A DNA stretch of 33,787 bases, from the IMG/VR virus record IMGVR_UViG_2724679074_000004, positions 1 through 33,787 of that record. One strand, written 5' to 3'. Shown one piece after another: positions 11,739-23,862 of this stretch. Within the stretch, counting starts at the first letter, position 1. Each line of letters opens with the position of its first letter. The translations under genes were made by a program, and so were the position numbers. Under the pieces are notes generated by a model, which was not told the DNA's origin, did not search any database, and was given only the letters and a program-made list of their open reading frames with translations. The DNA comes from a virus. Its lineage: Duplodnaviria; Heunggongvirae; Uroviricota; Caudoviricetes.

Positions 11739-12649
11739 TATCGAATTCCTTTATTCAGTTGCGCCTTGAGCTTGCGGTACGTCTCTACATCCCCTTTGTT
11801 TGCTGCCGCCTCCATCTGCTTCTCAATCGCAGAGATATTTGCAGCAACAGCGTGTCCCTGAATGGGTTCATCAGGTAGCGGGGCTTCTGAAACAGGTTTG
11901 GCTCGAGGCTTGAGAGTTAAACGTTCTGACAGTCGAGTGAGTTCAATCAGCGCGGATTGCCCGTCCATCGCCAGCAACTGGCGTGTTTTTTCAGGATTAG
12001 CACCAAGGTGATACATGAGAGCAGCGGATTTCTCCGGGAAGAGGCGCATGATGTCGGCACCGACTGCTGGCGGCACCAGTTGCATGAATGCATCCTCTTT
12101 CTCCTGATAGTCAGGGATATTGAGCTTTTCCGCTGCGTCGTAGTGCTTACGGGCTGCCTCGACGTATTGCGCTGATTGCTGGGTGAACTCCTGAGTTTTG
12201 CGACCCTGCTCGGCGACAGCCTGGCTTCGTGCGTCCATAGCCTTGATCTGCCATTCACTGTTTGCCTGCTGGAAGGCCGCCAGTGCGCGGCTCTGGTCAT
12301 AGTCGTACTTAGCCAGTGCGTCTTCGGAAAGATAATCGTTAGGGTCTGGTTGTTTTGGTAACTCAGGGTTCACCCGCAGGTGCTCCGGCAACTCTCCACG
12401 CTTAACCGCTTCCATCTGCTGCTCAAGCTCACGCTGGCGTTTGCGTTCGATGCGGCGACGAGCAAATTCAGCATTAGTTGCCGGGTCTTGTTTTGGTTTC
12501 TCATCGTCTTTCAGGACAATCTCGAAGCCTTCTTCCTGACCTGCGTTGTCGTTGGCATTATCGACAACTAAGCCATCAGCAGATGCCGCTGCATGATTGC
12601 CGGGCAGGGTTAATTCTTCAGAAGCCTGAATGTCGGTGGTTTGGTCCAT
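11738..12649 (-). CDS. Scaffolding protein, P22 gp8-like
   Basis: 303 aa (same as P22 gp8); high similarity throughout (..[30 protein letters not shown].. ..[11 protein letters not shown]..). Confidence 0.95.
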
Positions 12650-12662
12650 GATTAACTCTCTC

Positions 12663-14828
12663 TTATTGAGGTGTCTCGGCTACTCCGCCGGAGGGGATTT
12701 GAACTTGACGCATAAGATTCGCGAAATCCATGCGTTGTGAATGAGTCTGGTCTGCATCTTTAAGAAGCAGCTCAGCGTTAGCGCGAGCGTCTTTGCTGCG
12801 CTGTTGCTGGAATTGACCTACGAGCTTGAGGTACTCACGCAGTTCTGCCTGCTTGTCGAGGTCCATATTGTTGAAGATTTCTGCAATCTTCGCGGCGTTG
12901 AGTTGGTTTTGGGCTTCAACCTTGGCAGCTTCAACCTGAATCTGCGCCTGTTGGTTCTCTGCCTTGAGCAATTCAGCCTGACCTTGCAGAAGGATGCCCT
13001 GCGCCTGAATTTGCTCTGCTGATGGCTGCTGCGGCTGTTGTTGTGCCTGCTGCACCATCTCCATCTCTTCAGGTGTTTCTGGTTTCTTCAGCCCCATCAT
13101 CACCAGTTGCTTGTTCGCGTACTCTCGCATCATCTCGACGCCTTTACCGTCAAGCAGCGTGAAGTATTGCAGCATCAGCATCTGGAACTCTGGAGTACCT
13201 TGCGGAACCTTGGTGAGTAACTCCTGAATCTCTGCGCGGTTCTGTTCCTTCATGCTCTGGAAGGATGGTCCAACTCCTATATAGCACTCGTAGCGACCGC
13301 GAATGTCGTTGAGTGTGACCACATTACCGGACTGGTAATCGACAACTTGCGCGTAGAGTTGAACGTCTTTCTCGCTTCCATCTTCAAGTGTCAGCGTTAC
13401 ATGACGAGGGATGTCATAAATATCATTGACCATTGAGGCATAAATCTCGCCATCACGCCGCATTGCGGTAGCCAGGTTATCCTGAAACACGTATGTCTCA
13501 AGGTCTGACCGCATGTTCAGTTGATTGACGGTATCGAAAGAGACCTGAGAGTTTGCTGCCTGTGCATCCACGCCAAGACTAGCCACCTCTTTCACTGCGT
13601 TGGTGGCAGCCTCAAGCATGTAAGCGTTGGCTTGCGGCACTTCAGGGTTTTCCATGTAGGAGATTGGACCAATCGGCAGGTCGTTACCGTTTTCATCAGT
13701 CCTGTTCTGGAGATAGTACGGATAGTCATCATTTCCACCGTACATGTATTCGTAGCCTTCGATTTGCTCAGGGAAGAAGGTCGGTTTCTTCTTCGGTGAA
13801 CGACCAACAATATCGGCGTTGAATGACATGATCATGTTACGAAGGCGTTGACCGTCTTTCGTCAGCCTTACCACTCCTTCGTAGCACTCCTTGTCACCAG
13901 CGAATGACCATTCGCCATACACTGGAACGATTGGAATATGCTCTCCTGCTATCTTCTCGCGGTCTTTCAGTATCTGCGTGCAGGTGATGATCGACTTATA
14001 CACACGCCGACGCTTCACCTTGCGCTCTGCTACCTTAATGAATCCACGATTAGCCAGGTCGTCGATGACGTCTTTAATATCCTGCTGGTAATAGCTGACC
14101 GGCTCACCTGTCAGCGGGTCGCGGTAGATGAAGACCTTCTCTTTCTTCTCTTCTATCTCGTAATACTCAGCGACGTAGACGACATCATTCGATACCCACG
14201 GAAACAGCCATGTGTCGTTCGGATTCTGGAAAGATGGCAAGGTGTCCGGATCAATACCGTAATCCTCTGCGAACTCTTTCCAGCCATTGCGTGACAAGGC
14301 GTTAATCACCGTGCAGTGCTTAGCGTCGCTCTTATCCATCTGCTTGCTGTTGGCGTCCCATATGACGTGTGAGCAGGCCTCATGGATTGGCAGGCGTCTG
14401 ATTACCTGATTGTTGCTTGTTGGATCGTTGTCTTCGTACTGTGTGACCAGACGCCATGCACCAACGCCGGACTCTATCTGCTCACGAACGCCAACGTTAA
14501 CGGCAATCTTTGCCGTGTTATGGCGCATATCAGTACGATACATCCCCATCAACACATCGGCTGCATCAGGATTAGCGCCGTCTTTGGGTCGGAAGAGAAC
14601 GTCGATAGGGTTCCGGCGCATCTCTGCGACCAGTTTCCTGACCACTGGGCGAACAACATCGAATTGTCCGCGATATTGCAGGGTGGTGTAGTTTGATAGC
14701 CAGTCATCCCATTGCGACACTCGGCTAAAAAACAGGTCATTTGTCGCCTCGGTTCTGGCTTCATCGCTCGCCATCCAGTCTGCGTCAAACTTACACAGAA
14801 TGGAATTGAGTCTGTTTTCGTCGGCCAT
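12663..14828 (-). CDS. Portal protein, P22 gp1-like
   Basis: 721 aa; strong match to remembered P22 portal (..[35 protein letters not shown]..). Confidence 0.95.
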
Positions 14829-16328
14829 TTAAGTTCTCCGTGCGATGGGCCTGATTGGGGCTGGTATCTTTTTCTCTTTTGGTTTTTTGATGTCGCGCAT
14901 CATTTTGGCGAAGCGGCGCATCATGTATGCATAGCGAACGGCGGAGAGAACGTCATCGTTAAGTTTGACGATTTTCCCGTTTTCATCACGGTGATAGAGG
15001 CGGAACTCCTCAAAGAATGGCTCACAGGTGTTGAATACTTTGAAGCGACCGTCGAGCATCATGTCTCGCAATTCAGTGATGCCAGGCTCAACAGCATTAC
15101 CGCCATCAGGCCATGTCGCATGCTCCTGCAACATCATAAATCCAGCGTCTGCATACTGTCCTTTGAGCTGCTCACCGCCGCCCTTCTCATGCTGGTTTCC
15201 GTCATGAGGCCATGCGGTTGGCACTTTATGCGCCCATGATTTAACGGCTCCCCATGCCTGAACGGCTGTTTTTTCTTTCGCCTTCCACACGCGTGAAACG
15301 TAGATTGTGTCTGCGTCCTTATCCCACCAAAGCTGAACCTGCGCCTGTGGGTGATCCCATCCGAAATCCATCCCGCCAATTACGTAGAAGTGATCAGGAC
15401 ACTCGAACGGCTGACACTTAATTGTCTCTTCCGGTATCTGGAAGATTCGACCGCTACCCATCGTAGGAATACCGCGAGCACGCGCCTCTCTCTCATGCTC
15501 AGGATAGGATGCGATGATTTGCTCTTTCTGCTCGTCGGTGTAGTGCTCTGCGTCATAGATGGTCATGTTGACCACTTTCTGCGACTTGCTGGGATTCTTC
15601 AGGAACTTGGTAACAACGTCAGACATCCCCATCAGCGGGGTAAACGTCAGAATTGAGAATTGCCCGTATTTGTTGGTACGGGTAAGACCTTCGCCATAAA
15701 TGCTGTATGGTGGCTCTTCGTCAAACCACACGCCGTGGATTGTGTCACCCTGCCAGCGAGCACGGCCTTGCGAGTATGGCTTGAAGTAGCAGATTGAAAT
15801 GCCATCTTCAACGCCATCAGCCGTGTGATGCTTAACCAGAAGATGATCAACAAGGTTCGGAAAGAAAGGAGACTTCTTCCAGCTAATGATGTCTTCTTTC
15901 GGTATGGAACCGTAGCCAGGCTCATCATTCTCTTCGATACGACCGCACAGGATGCGTTGAGTCGTTTTGGTTACAGTCTCGTTTGTCTCGCCGCCAATCC
16001 AGAAGACAACAGGCTCATAGAAACGCTTACCTTTCCACTCACCGCCATATTTACCATCAGCAGGATAGCCTTTTGTGCCCGGATAACGCCCTGTAAGGTG
16101 AAACGCGACTTCAGCAGCACCAGTAAATGACTTACCAAGCTGGTTACCAGCCATAAAACAGCGCTCTGGATAGTCATGCCCGGCGTCGATGAACTCACGC
16201 TGTTTGCTGTATGGCGTAAATTCATATAGCAGGTGTGTGTTCCGGTAGTTCTCTTCTTCTTCGAGTAGCTCGAGCAACTCGATTTGCTCTTCGTCGCTCA
16301 GGTTATCAAGAATCGCGTCCAGTTCCAC
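14829..16328 (-). CDS. Terminase large subunit, P22 gp2-like
   Basis: 499 aa (= P22 gp2); Walker A-like GNQLGKSF; immediately downstream of the small-subunit gene with overlap. Confidence 0.9.
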
Positions 16329-16800
16329 GGTTGAATAGCTCCTTGATACGAGAGCGTCGCTTATCGCGATCTCCCTTATCAGGTGTCACGTCTTCAACTT
16401 GCGACTGCTCTTTGAGGCCCAAATCACGGGCGATGATGTTAGCGTTGAGAAGGTCAGCGGCTGCGCCAGAGAATTTCTGATCGTAGATGACCTGCTCTGC
16501 TCGCGTAACGACTTCAGATAAATCTTCTCTCAGGCGATATGTGCGCCATGTTTCAAGCGTCACATCAATGAACAGAGTGAGACCGGTAATGGTCATCGCT
16601 CGCATCTTGGCGATAGGCTCTTGTATCACTTCCCCCTGATACGAGAACGCCTTCATCTCCCATAGCGGGTTAGCTTCCACCCACTCGAAGTATTCACAAC
16701 AAGCAGCCCACAGCGCCTCAGGCGATTCGAATTTAGGATTTCGCCCATGACTACTGCGGGCCTCCCAAAATCGGTTGCCCTTTGGTGCTGCCATATTCAT
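16306..16800 (-). CDS. Terminase small subunit, P22 gp3-like
   Basis: 164 aa; sequence essentially identical to remembered P22 gp3 ([44 protein letters not shown]..). Confidence 0.95.
16503..16527 (-). other. pac site (P22-type packaging initiation sequence) inside the terminase small-subunit gene
   Basis: Minus-strand sequence GAAGATTTATCTGAAGTCGTTACGCG encoding EDLSEVVT matches the remembered P22 pac consensus; location within gene 3 as in P22. Confidence 0.5.
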
Positions 16801-16817
16801 CTCACTTATTTGTTATT

Positions 16818-16994
16818 TCAGGCTGATGACTCTTTCGCGCTTTCAATCAGTGACTGCTTCAGCAATTCGAGTGTGCCAATCGCCTCGCATAAACTGATTT
16901 CGCCATCGTAATCATGGATGACGCTTTCCAGCCGCTCGTATAGCTCTTGAGTAATTGGGAATTTCTTCTCCTTACCCAAATTGATTACGCGGCT
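16818..16994 (-). CDS. Possible small protein (59 aa, GTG start) between orf80 and terminase
   Basis: Uninterrupted frame VSRVINLGKEKKFPITQELYERLESVIHDYDGEISLCEAIGTLELLKQ.. with GGAG 6 nt upstream of GTG; below the ORF-track size cutoff. Confidence 0.3.
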   Translation of the reverse strand, partial: SRVINLGKEKKFPITQELYERLESVIHDYDGEISLCEAIGTLELLKQSLIESAKESSA

Positions 16995-16998
16995 CACA

Positions 16999-17241
16999 TC
17001 ATGCTCCGGTAGTGAACAGGTCTAACGCTTCCTTCGATTTACGCACCGCTTCGATAGTGCGGGTCGTGATATCTGAATTAGCGCCACCTGACTGGAAGTG
17101 AATTTTGAATAGCTCAAGCTTCAACTCGTCAGTGCCGATGAATTGAAATGCTTCTTCTGCGGCTGCGTTCTGGTTCATGACCAGCTTGTAAATCTCTAAC
17201 TGGAATTTCTGTTCTTCAGTCATGGGAATAATCTCTGCCAT
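16999..17241 (-). CDS. Hypothetical small protein (80 aa) upstream of the terminase genes
   Basis: ORF co-oriented with late operon; no recognizable family. Confidence 0.45.
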   Translation of the reverse strand: MAEIIPMTEEQKFQLEIYKLVMNQNAAAEEAFQFIGTDELKLELFKIHFQSGGANSDITTRTIEAVRKSKEALDLFTTGA

Positions 17242-17344
17242 TGTTGGCTCCGTTTATCCGTTAAAAGGGATATCAGTTAAGTTATCCCGTGTAGGGTATA
17301 AGCCATTATCAAAGCCACTCTGTAGGGAATGGCTTTTGTAATAA

Positions 17345-17725
17345 CTACTGTTCGCTTAGCTTCTGCTTCAGCAAGTAACCTTCGAGCATCCAGATTTTGT
17401 TTACAGCATTTTGCCGGGCAATCTTCCGACCAATTTCTGCATCAAAGTTTTCCGGGCTTGCACAGGCACTCTCTCCGGTGACGGTGAAGCCATTCTTCAG
17501 CACCAGTACGCAGAAAGTGAGCAACTTCAATGGTGATAAATCACGATCGCCTTCTTCTGGTTTTTCCCTGCCACAATATTCGTTGCTGGAAATGGCACCA
17601 TTACGTCCATCATAAGCAGTAAAGTAATGCTCGCTTTTAATCACGTCTTCGATGTGCTGCGGAGTGATTCTCGGAGCGGTTTTGCCTTTCTCAACGATTT
17701 CTTTTTCGATTTGCTGGTCGTTCAT
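17345..17725 (-). CDS. Conserved phage protein, possibly N4 gp49 / Sf6 gp66-like family
   Basis: 126 aa ORF between lysis cassette and terminase, a position occupied by gp66-type genes in Sf6-like phages; family assignment from memory only. Confidence 0.5.
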   Translation of the reverse strand: MNDQQIEKEIVEKGKTAPRITPQHIEDVIKSEHYFTAYDGRNGAISSNEYCGREKPEEGDRDLSPLKLLTFCVLVLKNGFTVTGESACASPENFDAEIGRKIARQNAVNKIWMLEGYLLKQKLSEQ

Positions 17726-18103
17726 AATTATGACCCTGTAGAGTGGTTGCTTGATTAGGATGTCTTTCCATCAGTCCGCCACCACAAAGAATCTTTTTTG
17801 CCATAAGGCAGGAGGTTCATCTTTCAGTGGCTGCCAGTGTTATTTCCCCACTTACTGGCTTGGGTTGTTTTGCGGTACTGCCGTAACTGGTTGCCCAGAA
17901 TAAATTCCGGTTTCATTATCAAGCCCACCCGTAGACAGGCTTTGTAATGAACTGGCTCTTATCTCAACGCAGCCCCTTACCGCGCGCCAGATGCTCAACT
18001 TCAAGCATCAGCAATGAGATGTTTAATCTGGATTCACTCCAGAAGTGATCACCACCCTGTCTACAGAGCCAGATGTGAAGGATGATGAGTAAAATTATCG
18101 CTA

Positions 18104-18571
18104 TCATCGAAGGCATTGCGTCCTGATGTATTCCTGAAGCGTTCTCAGTGCTGTTTGGTCGCGGATAATTCCGTCCCGGACACCGAGAACGTTTCGTCCA
18201 GCAACTGGAGAGAGTTCGACGGTGGCATCATTGCCCATGCCGGAGGCGCCGGAGGTTTCGTCTGAGGATGGCACAGGGCATTTTCCTTTGACGAGCACCC
18301 TGCCACCATTATCAAGCTTGCGACGAAGAGCATCATTTTCAGCTTTCGCATCAGCTAACTCCTTCGTGTATTTAGCATCGAGTACATCAGCAGCACGCTG
18401 GCGTTGCTGCATGTCAGTAATGGTGGCGGTCGCCTGCTTCAGCTCACTGACTTTTTTATCTCGCTGTTCTTTGTAGGCGATGGCGTTATCACGGTAGTGA
18501 TTAACAGCCCATGACAGGCAAACGATGATGCAGATAACCAGAGCGGAGATAATCGCGGTGACTCTGCTCAT
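18104..18571 (-). CDS. Rz: Rz-like i-spanin
   Basis: Start ATG overlaps endolysin stop (ATGA); N-terminal TM segment ([20 protein letters not shown]), coiled-coil periplasmic domain; Rz1 embedded in +1 frame. Confidence 0.85.
18145..18351 (-). CDS. Rz1: Rz1-like o-spanin lipoprotein embedded within Rz
   Basis: [19 protein letters not shown] lipobox, proline-rich (PPAPPAW) as in lambda Rz1; fully inside Rz in another frame. Confidence 0.8.
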
Positions 18572-19071
18572 TGCTGCCCCCACAAACAGACTTCACGCTC
18601 AATCTCACGGCGAGTCATCAGCCCTTTCCATTGCTTACCGCCAGCGTATGTCCAGCGACGTAGCTGGTCACATGCGCCATTGATATCGCCCTGGTTGATT
18701 TTGCGAAGAAGCGTCGATGTTCTGAAATTGCCTGCGCCCACGTTATAGACGAACGAATAAAGAGCGCCGCGCGTTGTTTCCGGTATATCGACTTTGATGT
18801 ACGGGTTAATTTGTCTGGCGACCGTGGCAAGGTCTTTATTCAGGAGGGCTTTGCATTCTGCTTCGGTATACGTTTTACCGAGCACGATGTCTTTTCCGGT
18901 ATGTCCGTGACATACAGTCCATACACCAACAATATCTTTGTATGGTATGTAGCTGACACCTTCCAGACCATCGTTACCACTTGGCCCAGTGATTAACACA
19001 GATGCTATAGCAATAGCCCCGCCACTTATCGCCGCTATTACGCTATTTCGTAGTGCCGGTGACATTGCCAT
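18568..19071 (-). CDS. SAR endolysin (phage 21 R21-like lysozyme with N-terminal signal-anchor-release domain)
   Basis: Near-identity to remembered R21 (..[48 protein letters not shown]..); Gly/Ala-rich weak TM at N-terminus. Confidence 0.9.
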
Positions 19072-22972: not shown

Positions 22973-23862
22973 GATCTGCTCCTGTAACTATCCCATGTAA
23001 ACGCAAGAGTGCACCCGCCGCCATCATTCATCCTGTCAATAACACGCTCACCAATGAATGCCGAAAGTTCATCTTTGCTCTGATTACTAATCAGGATTGT
23101 TGGCTTCATGTATTCATATCTGGTGTTGATAATTTCGAACATGATTAGCTTTTCAGCATCACTGCCGAACTGCACGCCAACCTCATCGATTATTAACAAG
23201 TCAGGATGCGTAAATTGCCTAATGACTTCTTCTTCAGTTCTGGTTGCGGCCTTAGACCATGTTGATTTGTACTCTCTGGCAATTTTCAACGCAGTGGTAA
23301 ATATCACAGAGCTTTGATGCTCGATAATGGCGTGCCTAGCAATAGCCAGTGCAAGGTGGTTCTTTCCAGTTCCAGGCTTACCACACATGACCAGTCCGCC
23401 ACCTTTTTGAAGGCGTTCAGGCCACTTACTGGCATATGCCTGGCAAACCTTAAGAACTCGCTTTGCATCATCGTTAACAGGCTCATAATTCTGAAGAGTG
23501 CAATTTTTGAACCTCTCTGGAATATTGAGAGAATTCAACAAATATTCAATTTTTGATTGTCTTGCTCTTTGTTCTGCCTGCTCACGTTCAATCTCTTTCT
23601 TACGAATTTTCTCCTCAAGGCACTGTTGGCACTCAGATTTACTTGAAGTAATTCTTTTTCCTGAGATGGTCAGATATTTCTCATAGGAAGTATATTTACC
23701 GTGTTTCTCGCACTCTTCCACTGTGCTGGCAACTGACATTCCATCTGATGCTGATCCAATTTTGCTAAACTCAAGTTTCTGTTTCAGATCAGAAATGTCA
23801 TTGATTTTTGAGTCTACAAGTTGCCTTTGCAGTGCCAGATTGTAACCATTTGTCGTATTCAT
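22969..23862 (-). CDS. DnaC-family replicative helicase loader (AAA+ ATPase) in the lambda P position
   Basis: Walker A CGKPGTGKNHLALA, Walker B LLIIDEVG; start taken at MNTTNGY.. just after O stop. Confidence 0.85.
   Translation of the reverse strand: MNTTNGYNLALQRQLVDSKINDISDLKQKLEFSKIGSASDGMSVASTVEECEKHGKYTSYEKYLTISGKRITSSKSECQQCLEEKIRKKEIEREQAEQRARQSKIEYLLNSLNIPERFKNCTLQNYEPVNDDAKRVLKVCQAYASKWPERLQKGGGLVMCGKPGTGKNHLALAIARHAIIEHQSSVIFTTALKIAREYKSTWSKAATRTEEEVIRQFTHPDLLIIDEVGVQFGSDAEKLIMFEIINTRYEYMKPTILISNQSKDELSAFIGERVIDRMNDGGGCTLAFTWDSYRSRS

Follow-up and report, generated by a model that had tools for sequence, protein, structure and literature searches.

A conserved non-coding core homologous to the P22G RNA beside an Acb4-family candidate gene at the Rz-terminase junction of an Escherichia coli Sf6/P22-like prophage

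What is carried between the Rz lysis gene and the small terminase gene of an Escherichia coli Sf6/P22-like prophage, and does the stretch of this junction that lacks long open reading frames (ORFs) have a function of its own? The junction lies in IMG/VR record IMGVR_UViG_2724679074_000004, of which positions 1 to 33,787 were analysed (33,787 nucleotides (nt), hereafter the window). A first-pass annotation made from the sequence alone had placed three ORFs of 126, 80 and 59 amino acids (aa) there, and had suspected an RNA or regulatory element in the gap at 17726-18103. Every coordinate of that annotation was reproduced by the ORF analysis, and 17726-18103 contained no ORF of at least 60 aa on either strand. 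The gene content is ordinary for the phage group and is now largely explainable, and the non-coding content is more interesting than had been supposed. The gap is more conserved than the surrounding genes, and two hairpins mark boundaries at the locus; both points were absent from the earlier account. We slightly favour the explanation that the junction is an array of accessory cassettes in the late operon, in which an Acb4-family gene was inserted beside a conserved small-RNA core, and the hairpins act as RNA processing or stabilising elements and as homology patches for cassette exchange. All genes of the locus are on the minus strand in the order Rz to terminase, and the features on which the argument rests are as follows.

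17759-17884, minus strand: the B core, a conserved non-coding segment homologous by alignment to the P22G RNA; 17759-17866 is nearly invariant
17949 to 17759, minus strand: block B, present without annotation in about 200 phage records
17909-17952, minus strand: hairpin HP1, an inverted repeat at the 5' edge of the conserved block
17726-17758, minus strand: 5' leader of the gp66 cassette, whose left insertion end is the junction GACATC/CTAATC, mapped against HK620, epsilon34, P22 and HK97
17345-17725, minus strand: the 126-aa gp66-like ORF (PF13876), an Acb4-family candidate
17299-17346, minus strand: hairpin HP2, an inverted repeat that begins at the gp66 stop codon

The same arrangement was present in about 107 complete E. 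coli genomes at 98.6% identity or higher, and the window was therefore identified as an E. coli Sf6/P22-like prophage. Shigella phage Sf6 was 96% identical over the 1.6 kilobases (kb) around the locus, and more than 230 phage records of P22-like podoviruses and of HK97-like and lambda-like siphoviruses matched parts of it. The nucleotide diversity (pi) of the core was 0.014, compared at the same loci with 0.040 for the 3' part of Rz, 0.050 for the DUF2560 gene and 0.057 for the DUF2560 leader; over 51-54 loci the core was 3-4 times less variable than the neighbouring genes. The contrast was extreme between adjacent sequences, pi being 0.154 in gp66 (17345-17725), mostly synonymous among close variants, and 0.014 in the core (17759-17866). 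Of 5426 complete E. coli genomes, 1120 (21%) carried the core, 99.7% of these at 95% identity or more, and it was never annotated. Its identity was uniformly 95-99% across P22-like, HK97-like and lambda-like phages. A search with nhmmer for diverged copies beside the gp66 or DUF2560 homologues of Proteus, Yersinia, Pantoea, Serratia and Shimwellia recovered no core, and only the hairpin recurred.

An RNA from the corresponding position has already been reported. Small-RNA sequencing of P22-infected Salmonella assigned 99.8% of the P22-specific reads to ten loci, which include all four known P22 small RNAs and, among the new ones, P22G (Naaz et al., 2026; PMC13397905). P22G is 204 nt long, lies on the late strand downstream of ORF201, is without known function and was recovered at 374/488 reads per million (PMC13397905). 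Its nucleotides 59-186 aligned to window 17884-17759 with 121 of 128 positions identical (95%), and by this alignment the core is a homologue of P22G. Strand and setting agree in the two phages: the sequence is on the late strand, with the lysis cassette upstream and the DUF2560 gene downstream of it. In P22 the RNA has its start within the 3' end of rha and its end at the top of HP2, which in that phage takes the cassette-less form; here HP1 lies upstream and the gp66 cassette downstream, so both RNA ends would differ. This homology is the best available sign that the core may accumulate as RNA, a sign that comes from another phage. The earlier suspicion of a small RNA or regulatory element was thus strengthened by a candidate small RNA, and no Rfam family was reached at threshold. 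Rfam scans (permissive over 16500-18700, at gathering threshold over the whole window, and over seven related loci) gave only a chance-level partial match to Proteo-phage-1, and promoter and terminator prediction on the gap, which had been proposed as a check, returned none on the late strand. The core RNA would therefore be processed from the late transcript. A literature search on small RNAs at the lysis-terminase junction yielded nothing useful beyond the paper on P22 outer membrane vesicles. The core also carries ACCUCCU (17810-17816, minus strand), a 7-nt sequence identical to the anti-Shine-Dalgarno end of 16S rRNA; this sequence is unpaired in the minimum-energy fold and could pair with ribosome-binding sites.

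HP1 and HP2 are two similar inverted repeats 610 nt apart, with the core and the gp66 cassette between them. They share the frame CAUUA-CA, a stem of 9-10 base pairs (bp) closed by a loop, and GA-UAAUG. HP1 reads CAUUA-CA-AAGCCUGUC-UACG-GGUGGGCUU-GA-UAAUG, and HP2 reads AUUA-CA-AAAGCCAUUC-loop-GAGUGGCUUU-GA-UAAU. The minimum free energy of HP1 was -16.4 kcal/mol (z = -3.4), and across 28 copies 99.5% of the cells were paired, all changes being wobble-compatible. An alignment of 15 distinct hairpins from five genera (Escherichia, Salmonella, Serratia, Yersinia and Pantoea) was then scored for covariation. The cells were paired in 97% of cases, both sides changed in 9 of the 14 pairs, and the covariation score was 0.525; shuffles gave 0.257, with none of 500 reaching the observed value, and slid controls gave 0.07-0.16. 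G.U pairs occupied 31 of 209 cells and would be A.C on the opposite strand, which indicates that the hairpin folds better on the late-sense strand. No entry for the hairpin was found in Rfam.

A covariance model, R1, was built from the 15 hairpins and scored HP2 at 55.4 bits and HP1 at 50.6 bits. Strong copies were restricted to this region: the window has only two, and the whole genome of Sf6 likewise has two. Over the loci searched there were about 100 matches, none of them in the GC-rich Proteo-phage-1 contigs among those loci. Counted from the stop codons of accessory genes, the matches in five genera began at distances of -2 to 63 nt, and the genes on their 5' side encoded Acb4-like, Tad2-like, Rha, KilA-N, HNH endonuclease, DUF551 and small unknown proteins; in other phages, Tad2-like, KilA-N and Rha genes are inserted directly 5' of HP1. 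HP2 was of the type ATTACAAAAGCC where the cassette is present and of the type ATTGCAGAGRCC in cassette-less phages, and by this comparison the cassettes therefore appear to carry their own 3' hairpin. Such a covarying hairpin could serve as a search handle for accessory cassettes. A third R1 match in the window (23299-23333, plus strand; 15 bits, E = 0.14) was set aside as chance, being antisense inside a DnaC-like replication gene. The annotated 'bsq' boundary sequences of Sf6 were likewise rejected as the same element; they are heterogeneous patches, and the hairpin is not among them. The segment CCACUCUACAGGG of the gp66 5' leader (17734-17746) and, 406 nt downstream, the sequence CCCUACAGAGUGG in the loop and 3' arm of HP2 (17315-17327) are complementary; this may be a long-range pairing, possibly masking the gp66 ribosome-binding site, or a relic of cassette capture.

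The inserted gene could be placed in a family. The 126-aa protein matched Pfam PF13876 (N4 Gp49 / Sf6 gene 66) with an E-value of 3.4e-35 and 120.8 bits (cut-off 27), the match covering positions 1-82 of the 82 in the profile. In two papers PF13876 is equated with the Acb4 family, phage tetramers that sequester the signals of the cyclic-oligonucleotide-based antiphage signalling system (CBASS), which are cyclic dinucleotides. According to the same papers, 3'3'-cyclic GMP-AMP (3'3'-cGAMP) was bound by Acb4 of Bacillus phage SPO1 and by all eight homologues tested, and homologues from phages of Gram-negative hosts also bound 3'3'-cAA. The sole meaningful match in a PDB sequence search was SPO1 Acb4 (9e4w, E = 0.007). 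An AlphaFold2 (AF2) monomer model of the 126-aa protein (pLDDT 78, from the predicted local distance difference test) has the fold of the Acb4 protomer, a three-stranded sheet with flanking helices and a long C-terminal helix. The top 13 Foldseek matches of this model in the PDB were all 9e4w chains (probability 0.99-1.0, target-normalised template modelling (TM) score about 0.5), and the first match to any other structure had a probability of 0.72. More than 8000 homologues were found, of which all 120 listed carry PF13876; fusions to Tad2 or Sequestin sponge domains occur among homologues of 71-73% identity. The gp66 ORF had a synonymous fraction of 0.87 among natural variants, a coding-type pattern, compared with about 0.21 expected at random.

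By family membership and predicted fold, the 126-aa protein is probably an anti-CBASS cyclic-dinucleotide sponge, and we treat it as an Acb4-family candidate. Like SPO1 Acb4 it is phage-encoded and has the core motif ENFxxEIGR. Of the residues that contact 3'3'-cGAMP in SPO1 Acb4, the equivalents of F48, F62 and I66, which are stacking or hydrophobic contacts, are identical in the phmmer alignment (only 3 of 8 alignable contacts). K36 and K81 fall outside the aligned stretch. SPO1 Acb4 is shorter, with 96 aa compared with 126 aa here (about 30 extra N-terminal residues), and the two proteins are about 24% identical. The three products of 126, 80 and 59 aa had all been described as of unknown function, a description that no longer fits the first and still fits the other two.

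The modules around the core were delimited by comparison with Sf6, Huey, HK620, epsilon34, P22, HK97 and ST64T, and two variable points flank block B.

About 18139 to 17941, minus strand: segment A, which trails Rz in many phages
About 17941-17949: first variable point, empty in this prophage
Directly after ...GACATC at 17759: second variable point, at which the gp66 cassette is inserted in this prophage

At the first point other phages carry Tad2-like genes (Huey, L088), KilA-N with hkbL (HK620), a GIY-YIG/T5orf172 nuclease gene (epsilon34) or rha (P22). At the second, a 62-aa gene, an 80-aa gene or a DUF551 gene is found in place of the cassette. In HK620, epsilon34, P22 and HK97, which are without the gp66 cassette, the B core runs straight into the DUF2560 leader with 1 bp between the matches. 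The proposal that the junction is an insertion point for morons or other accessory genes was therefore supported, the gp66 cassette being a clean insertion relative to these four phages and other accessory genes occurring at both points. Tad2-like genes occupy the Rz-to-DUF2560 slot in phage Huey (L002 1758-2258) and in the IMG/VR locus L088, and a Serratia P22-like prophage (L133 1871-2152) carries an Acb2/Tad1 hairpin-domain gene between Rz and DUF2560. In Proteus and Yersinia an Acb4-like gene also lies between the lysis genes and terminase, and in Pantoea one lies between Q and holin.

By gene family assignment, the lysis-to-terminase junction is a slot where counter-defence genes recur, and in several phages of the P22-like and HK97-like groups it holds the known types Acb4-like, Tad2-like and Acb2/Tad1-like. 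The small unknown genes in the same slots are therefore candidate new ones, namely those for the 62-aa and 80-aa proteins and DUF551, and possibly DUF2560 and hkbN.

For lambdoid phages, Juhala et al. in 2000 and Clark et al. in 2001 reportedly described morons and 'boundary sequences'. As with morons, an extra gene lies here between genes that are adjacent in relatives, and short conserved sequences lie at the module borders. The gp66 cassette differs in having no predicted promoter or U-tract terminator of its own: consensus scans of the late strand found no promoter-like site upstream of gp66 and no terminator-like site from downstream of gp66 to the small terminase gene. It resembles a moron in its insertion and not in the possession of its own promoter and factor-independent terminator. 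The boundary element also differs from the lambdoid boundary sequences, being a defined covarying hairpin family and not an arbitrary conserved patch.

The explanation that we favour would run as follows along the late transcript. The conserved stretch after Rz, with a 50-codon ORF that is probably not translated into a selected protein, would end in HP1. The ultra-conserved core of 108-126 nt would be excised from the long late transcript, not made from its own promoter, and would accumulate as a stable, structured fragment; it might have a regulatory role. The inserted cassette would open with a short leader, continue with the Acb4-family gene and close with HP2, a 3' hairpin of its own, and the encoded protein, by family membership, would form a tetramer that soaks up CBASS cyclic-dinucleotide signals of the 3'3'-cGAMP type. 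A second leader and, after it, the DUF2560 and hkbN-like genes would then follow. The CAUUA-CA-stem-loop-GA-UAAUG hairpins 3' of accessory genes would process or stabilise the RNA and set the ends of transcript segments, and as a by-product would supply short homology patches for cassette exchange between phages. The layout of the junction, its conservation, the hairpin covariation, the family and fold of the 126-aa protein and the homology to P22G are results of the analysis; RNA processing, sponge activity in this phage and a regulatory role of the core are inferences. Two non-coding elements with defined coordinates, the small-RNA core of 21% of complete E. coli genomes and the hairpin, were thereby added to the locus, and the mechanism of the hairpin, RNA processing or cassette exchange, bears on why lambdoid mosaic boundaries coincide with gene boundaries.

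Several observations weigh against this explanation. For the core, the pi loci were gathered through an exact 16-mer inside it, a selection that bears on the low diversity, and recent spread or gene conversion could be an alternative cause of that low diversity. The folding z-scores of the core were modest (-1.8 to -2.2), and no covariation was found inside it among 59 unique copies, in which variation was too low. The support for P22G is one small-RNA sequencing study, in which it was outside the two RNAs checked by reverse transcription PCR (PMC13397905), and P22G could be a decay intermediate. The hairpins lack a U-tract and are not terminators; the alignment was assembled by looking for hairpins and carries that ascertainment, and its covariation would be equally expected for a DNA palindrome or a single-stranded-DNA site. 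For the 126-aa protein, the residues equivalent to the SPO1 Acb4 contacts E49, V56, Y57, N63 and T70 differ, so that the base-specific and phosphate contacts (E49, Y57, N63 and T70) are not kept. With 3 of 8 alignable contacts identical, its ligand specificity and range are therefore left open.

The alternative that survives best, which we still consider unlikely, is that the gap is a passive linker. The block and the hairpins would then persist as boundary sequences homogenised by recombination, and the P22G reads would be functionless breakdown products of late mRNA. Both edges of the block are indeed sharp mosaic junctions with at least five alternative downstream sequences, the uniform identity of the core among the three phage groups is as for recently exchanged DNA, and the missing covariation of the core and the lack of independent validation of P22G point the same way. 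However, the DUF2560 leader and gene that travel with the core in the same loci are 3-4 times more variable than the core. The hairpin stems, moreover, covary within the fixed CAUUA-CA / GA-UAAUG frame across genera that are otherwise unalignable, which argues for selection on structure and not just shared ancestry, and their G.U pairs point to a strand-specific structure.

A less probable alternative, to which we give little weight, is that the hairpins act on DNA, as recombination or homing targets that fold from single-stranded DNA as integron attC sites do, or are read by the nearby HNH or GIY-YIG nucleases. Such a DNA site would explain that each accessory gene moves together with its 3' hairpin. 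In agreement with this alternative, the unit pairs a gene with an imperfect palindrome on its 3' side, conserved at the ends and variable in the centre, and the hairpin type changes with the cassette. Genes for HNH (L041) and GIY-YIG (epsilon34) endonucleases occur at the same insertion sites, and the gp66 cassette has as its left end a partial copy of the hairpin arm in inverted orientation. Against it, no integrase or recombinase was associated with the hairpin sites (no integrase gene was present between the lysis and terminase genes in the loci examined), the attC R-box consensus GTTRRRY was absent from the hairpin sequences, and the junction positions are not identical between cassette types. 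The operon is very highly transcribed, and every hairpin copy is on its sense strand; the strand-specific G.U pairing is as compatible with RNA as with one DNA strand.

Integron attC sites and the RNase III processing hairpins between phage T7 genes are the two known elements that the hairpins resemble. An attC site is likewise an imperfect palindrome at the 3' end of a cassette, with conserved ends and a variable centre, but the hairpin here is shorter than a typical attC and comes with neither an integrase nor the attC consensus. The T7 sites share a stem of about 14-15 bp (15-16 bp in HP2), a small internal loop and a position between cistrons of a long operon; they differ in that RNase III cleavage is a feature of T7, and the hairpin here is known from sequence alone. 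A bolder proposal, which we put forward only tentatively, is that enterobacterial lambdoid phages have in this hairpin a dedicated cassette-boundary element that has not been described before. Recognised by a nuclease or recombinase, it would give order to an anti-defence island of exchangeable genes (Acb4, Tad2, Acb2 and others) in the late operon, and the core would be a functional late small RNA in about one fifth of E. coli genomes.

It is very improbable that the gap encodes one or more small proteins, whether a gp65-like 50-aa membrane peptide, an antisense 47-aa peptide or the products of short forward ORFs. The short ORFs of the gap were of 50 aa (17964-18116), 50 aa (17852-18004), 34 aa and 37 aa on the minus strand and of 50 aa with a TTG start on the plus strand. 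The first of these is the gp65-like ORF:

17964-18116, minus strand: 50-codon gp65-like ORF, overlapping the end of Rz (phrog_11822; annotated in Sf6 and by the PGAP pipeline)

This ORF is annotated as gene 65 in Sf6, in epsilon34 and as a 'hypothetical protein' by PGAP in E. coli, and it matched phrog_11822 with an E-value of 9e-38; the gap is therefore not unannotated everywhere. Its N-terminus is hydrophobic and its frame was open in 33 of 35 copies, with a premature stop in one copy. Its 25 variable sites were distributed 9:8:8 over the codon positions, and 6 of the changes were synonymous and 19 non-synonymous. The resulting synonymous fraction of 0.24 was close to the random expectation of about 0.22, compared with 0.47-0.87 for genuine genes nearby. 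Because this coding signature is absent from its substitution pattern, the gp65 ORF is probably non-coding sequence that trails Rz in the late transcript and is conserved as DNA.

The antisense 47-aa ORF (17760-17903, plus strand) remained open in 57 of 59 variants, and the edge of the block falls at its ATG. Its synonymous fraction of 0.19 is nevertheless a neutral pattern, and the ATG is without a ribosome-binding site, the sequence upstream of it differing among phages. The forward ORFs in the core begin MNLLPYGKK... and MAKKILCGGG..., and orf-118 of ST64T is annotated with its start at the MAKKIL ATG; both frames were broken in natural variants by the changes TAT>TAA, ATG>AAG and A6>A7. 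None of the small-protein candidates of the gap had a family match, and coding by any of them was rejected on the substitution patterns and the natural disrupting variants. A dnaX-like slippery heptamer, A_AAA_AAG (17793-17799, minus strand), directly follows the ATG of the MAKKIL frame, and a -1 shift there would enter the MNLLPYGKK frame. The heptamer is probably a coincidence, because both frames are broken in natural variants, and programmed -1 frameshifting was dropped with both frames dispensable.

Membership of the core in the Rfam family Proteo-phage-1 (RF03044) is hardly credible and was rejected as a mere resemblance, since the partial cmscan match at 17829-17864 (16.8 bits, E = 7.5) is far below the gathering score of 42 and aligns only the unpaired ends of the model with both hairpins deleted, the seven related loci gave no match, and the proposed pseudoknot has an A.C mismatch in 5 of 59 variants, even though the shared 16-mer AAWAACACYGGCAGCC retrieves both element types and in both a hairpin loop AGCCRGU can pair with a tail ACYGGC, a G-C pair of true members becoming A-U here with the pairing kept. 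Both elements thus have a 16-nt tail and a hairpin loop complementary to it, and both occur in late-transcribed regions of phages of Proteobacteria. The first hairpin of the family is absent here, and genomic position and host group differ: true members come from GC-rich phage contigs, in which NinG and the Q-position gene precede the element and the holin gene follows it. True Proteo-phage-1 RNAs scored 65-87 bits (IMG/VR loci L014-L124, GC about 0.6; for example L117 7658-7736). They precede holin-like and endolysin genes, in the position that a late-operon leader occupies. A pseudoknot is suggested by the complementarity between GCCGG in the loop of their second hairpin and CCGGC in the conserved 3' tail.

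The remaining genes of the junction and those that bound it are:

18104-18583, minus strand: Rz
16999-17241, minus strand: 80-aa DUF2560 ORF, corresponding to HK620 hkbM, P22 orf80 and Sf6 gp67
16818-16997, minus strand: 59-aa ORF with a GTG start, corresponding to HK620 hkbN, P22 orf59c and Sf6 gp68
16306-16800, minus strand: small terminase gene of the P22 gp3 type

The 80-aa protein matched PF10834 (DUF2560) with an E-value of 1e-43. Only 93 protein clusters of this family were found, from E. coli, Salmonella, Shimwellia and Serratia, and the family is confined to phages of Enterobacterales. The synonymous fraction of the ORF was 0.58, compared with 0.21 at random. Its AF2 model (pLDDT 85) consists of four helices and had no match among PDB folds better than E = 1.9. 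The protein had no sequence relative in the PDB and no match in PADLOC or NCBIfam, and a literature search on DUF2560 and hkbM yielded nothing useful. The 59-aa hkbN-like ORF matched phrog_3546 with an E-value of 1e-42 and has annotated homologues in related phages; the synonymous fraction of its variable sites was 0.47, compared with 0.22 at random, and no relative was found in Pfam, NCBIfam, PADLOC or the PDB. The conservation of the two small ORFs in related phages, which had been left as a point on which their status could turn, was thus confirmed together with coding-type substitution patterns, and on this evidence DUF2560 and the hkbN-like ORF are real genes. For annotation, three 'hypothetical' labels can be replaced by a probable anti-CBASS sponge and two real genes, and one ORF should probably not be annotated as a gene. 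In HK97 (L006 1694-1876), the conserved block is followed by the DUF2560 leader, only about the first 80 nt of DUF2560 and then the HNH gene gp74; the fragment is an apparent remnant of the DUF2560 gene.

A 68-aa ORF inside Rz in another frame (18145-18351, minus strand) carries a lipoprotein signal (...MVAGCSS...) and corresponds to the outer-membrane spanin Rz1, which Sf6 and P22 annotate likewise. A tRNA scan of the window found none. Two further P22 small RNAs had partial matches in the window: P22H, which lies upstream of the portal gene, at 12666-12700 (86% identity), and P22I, which lies upstream of the coat gene, at 11764-11815 (79% identity).

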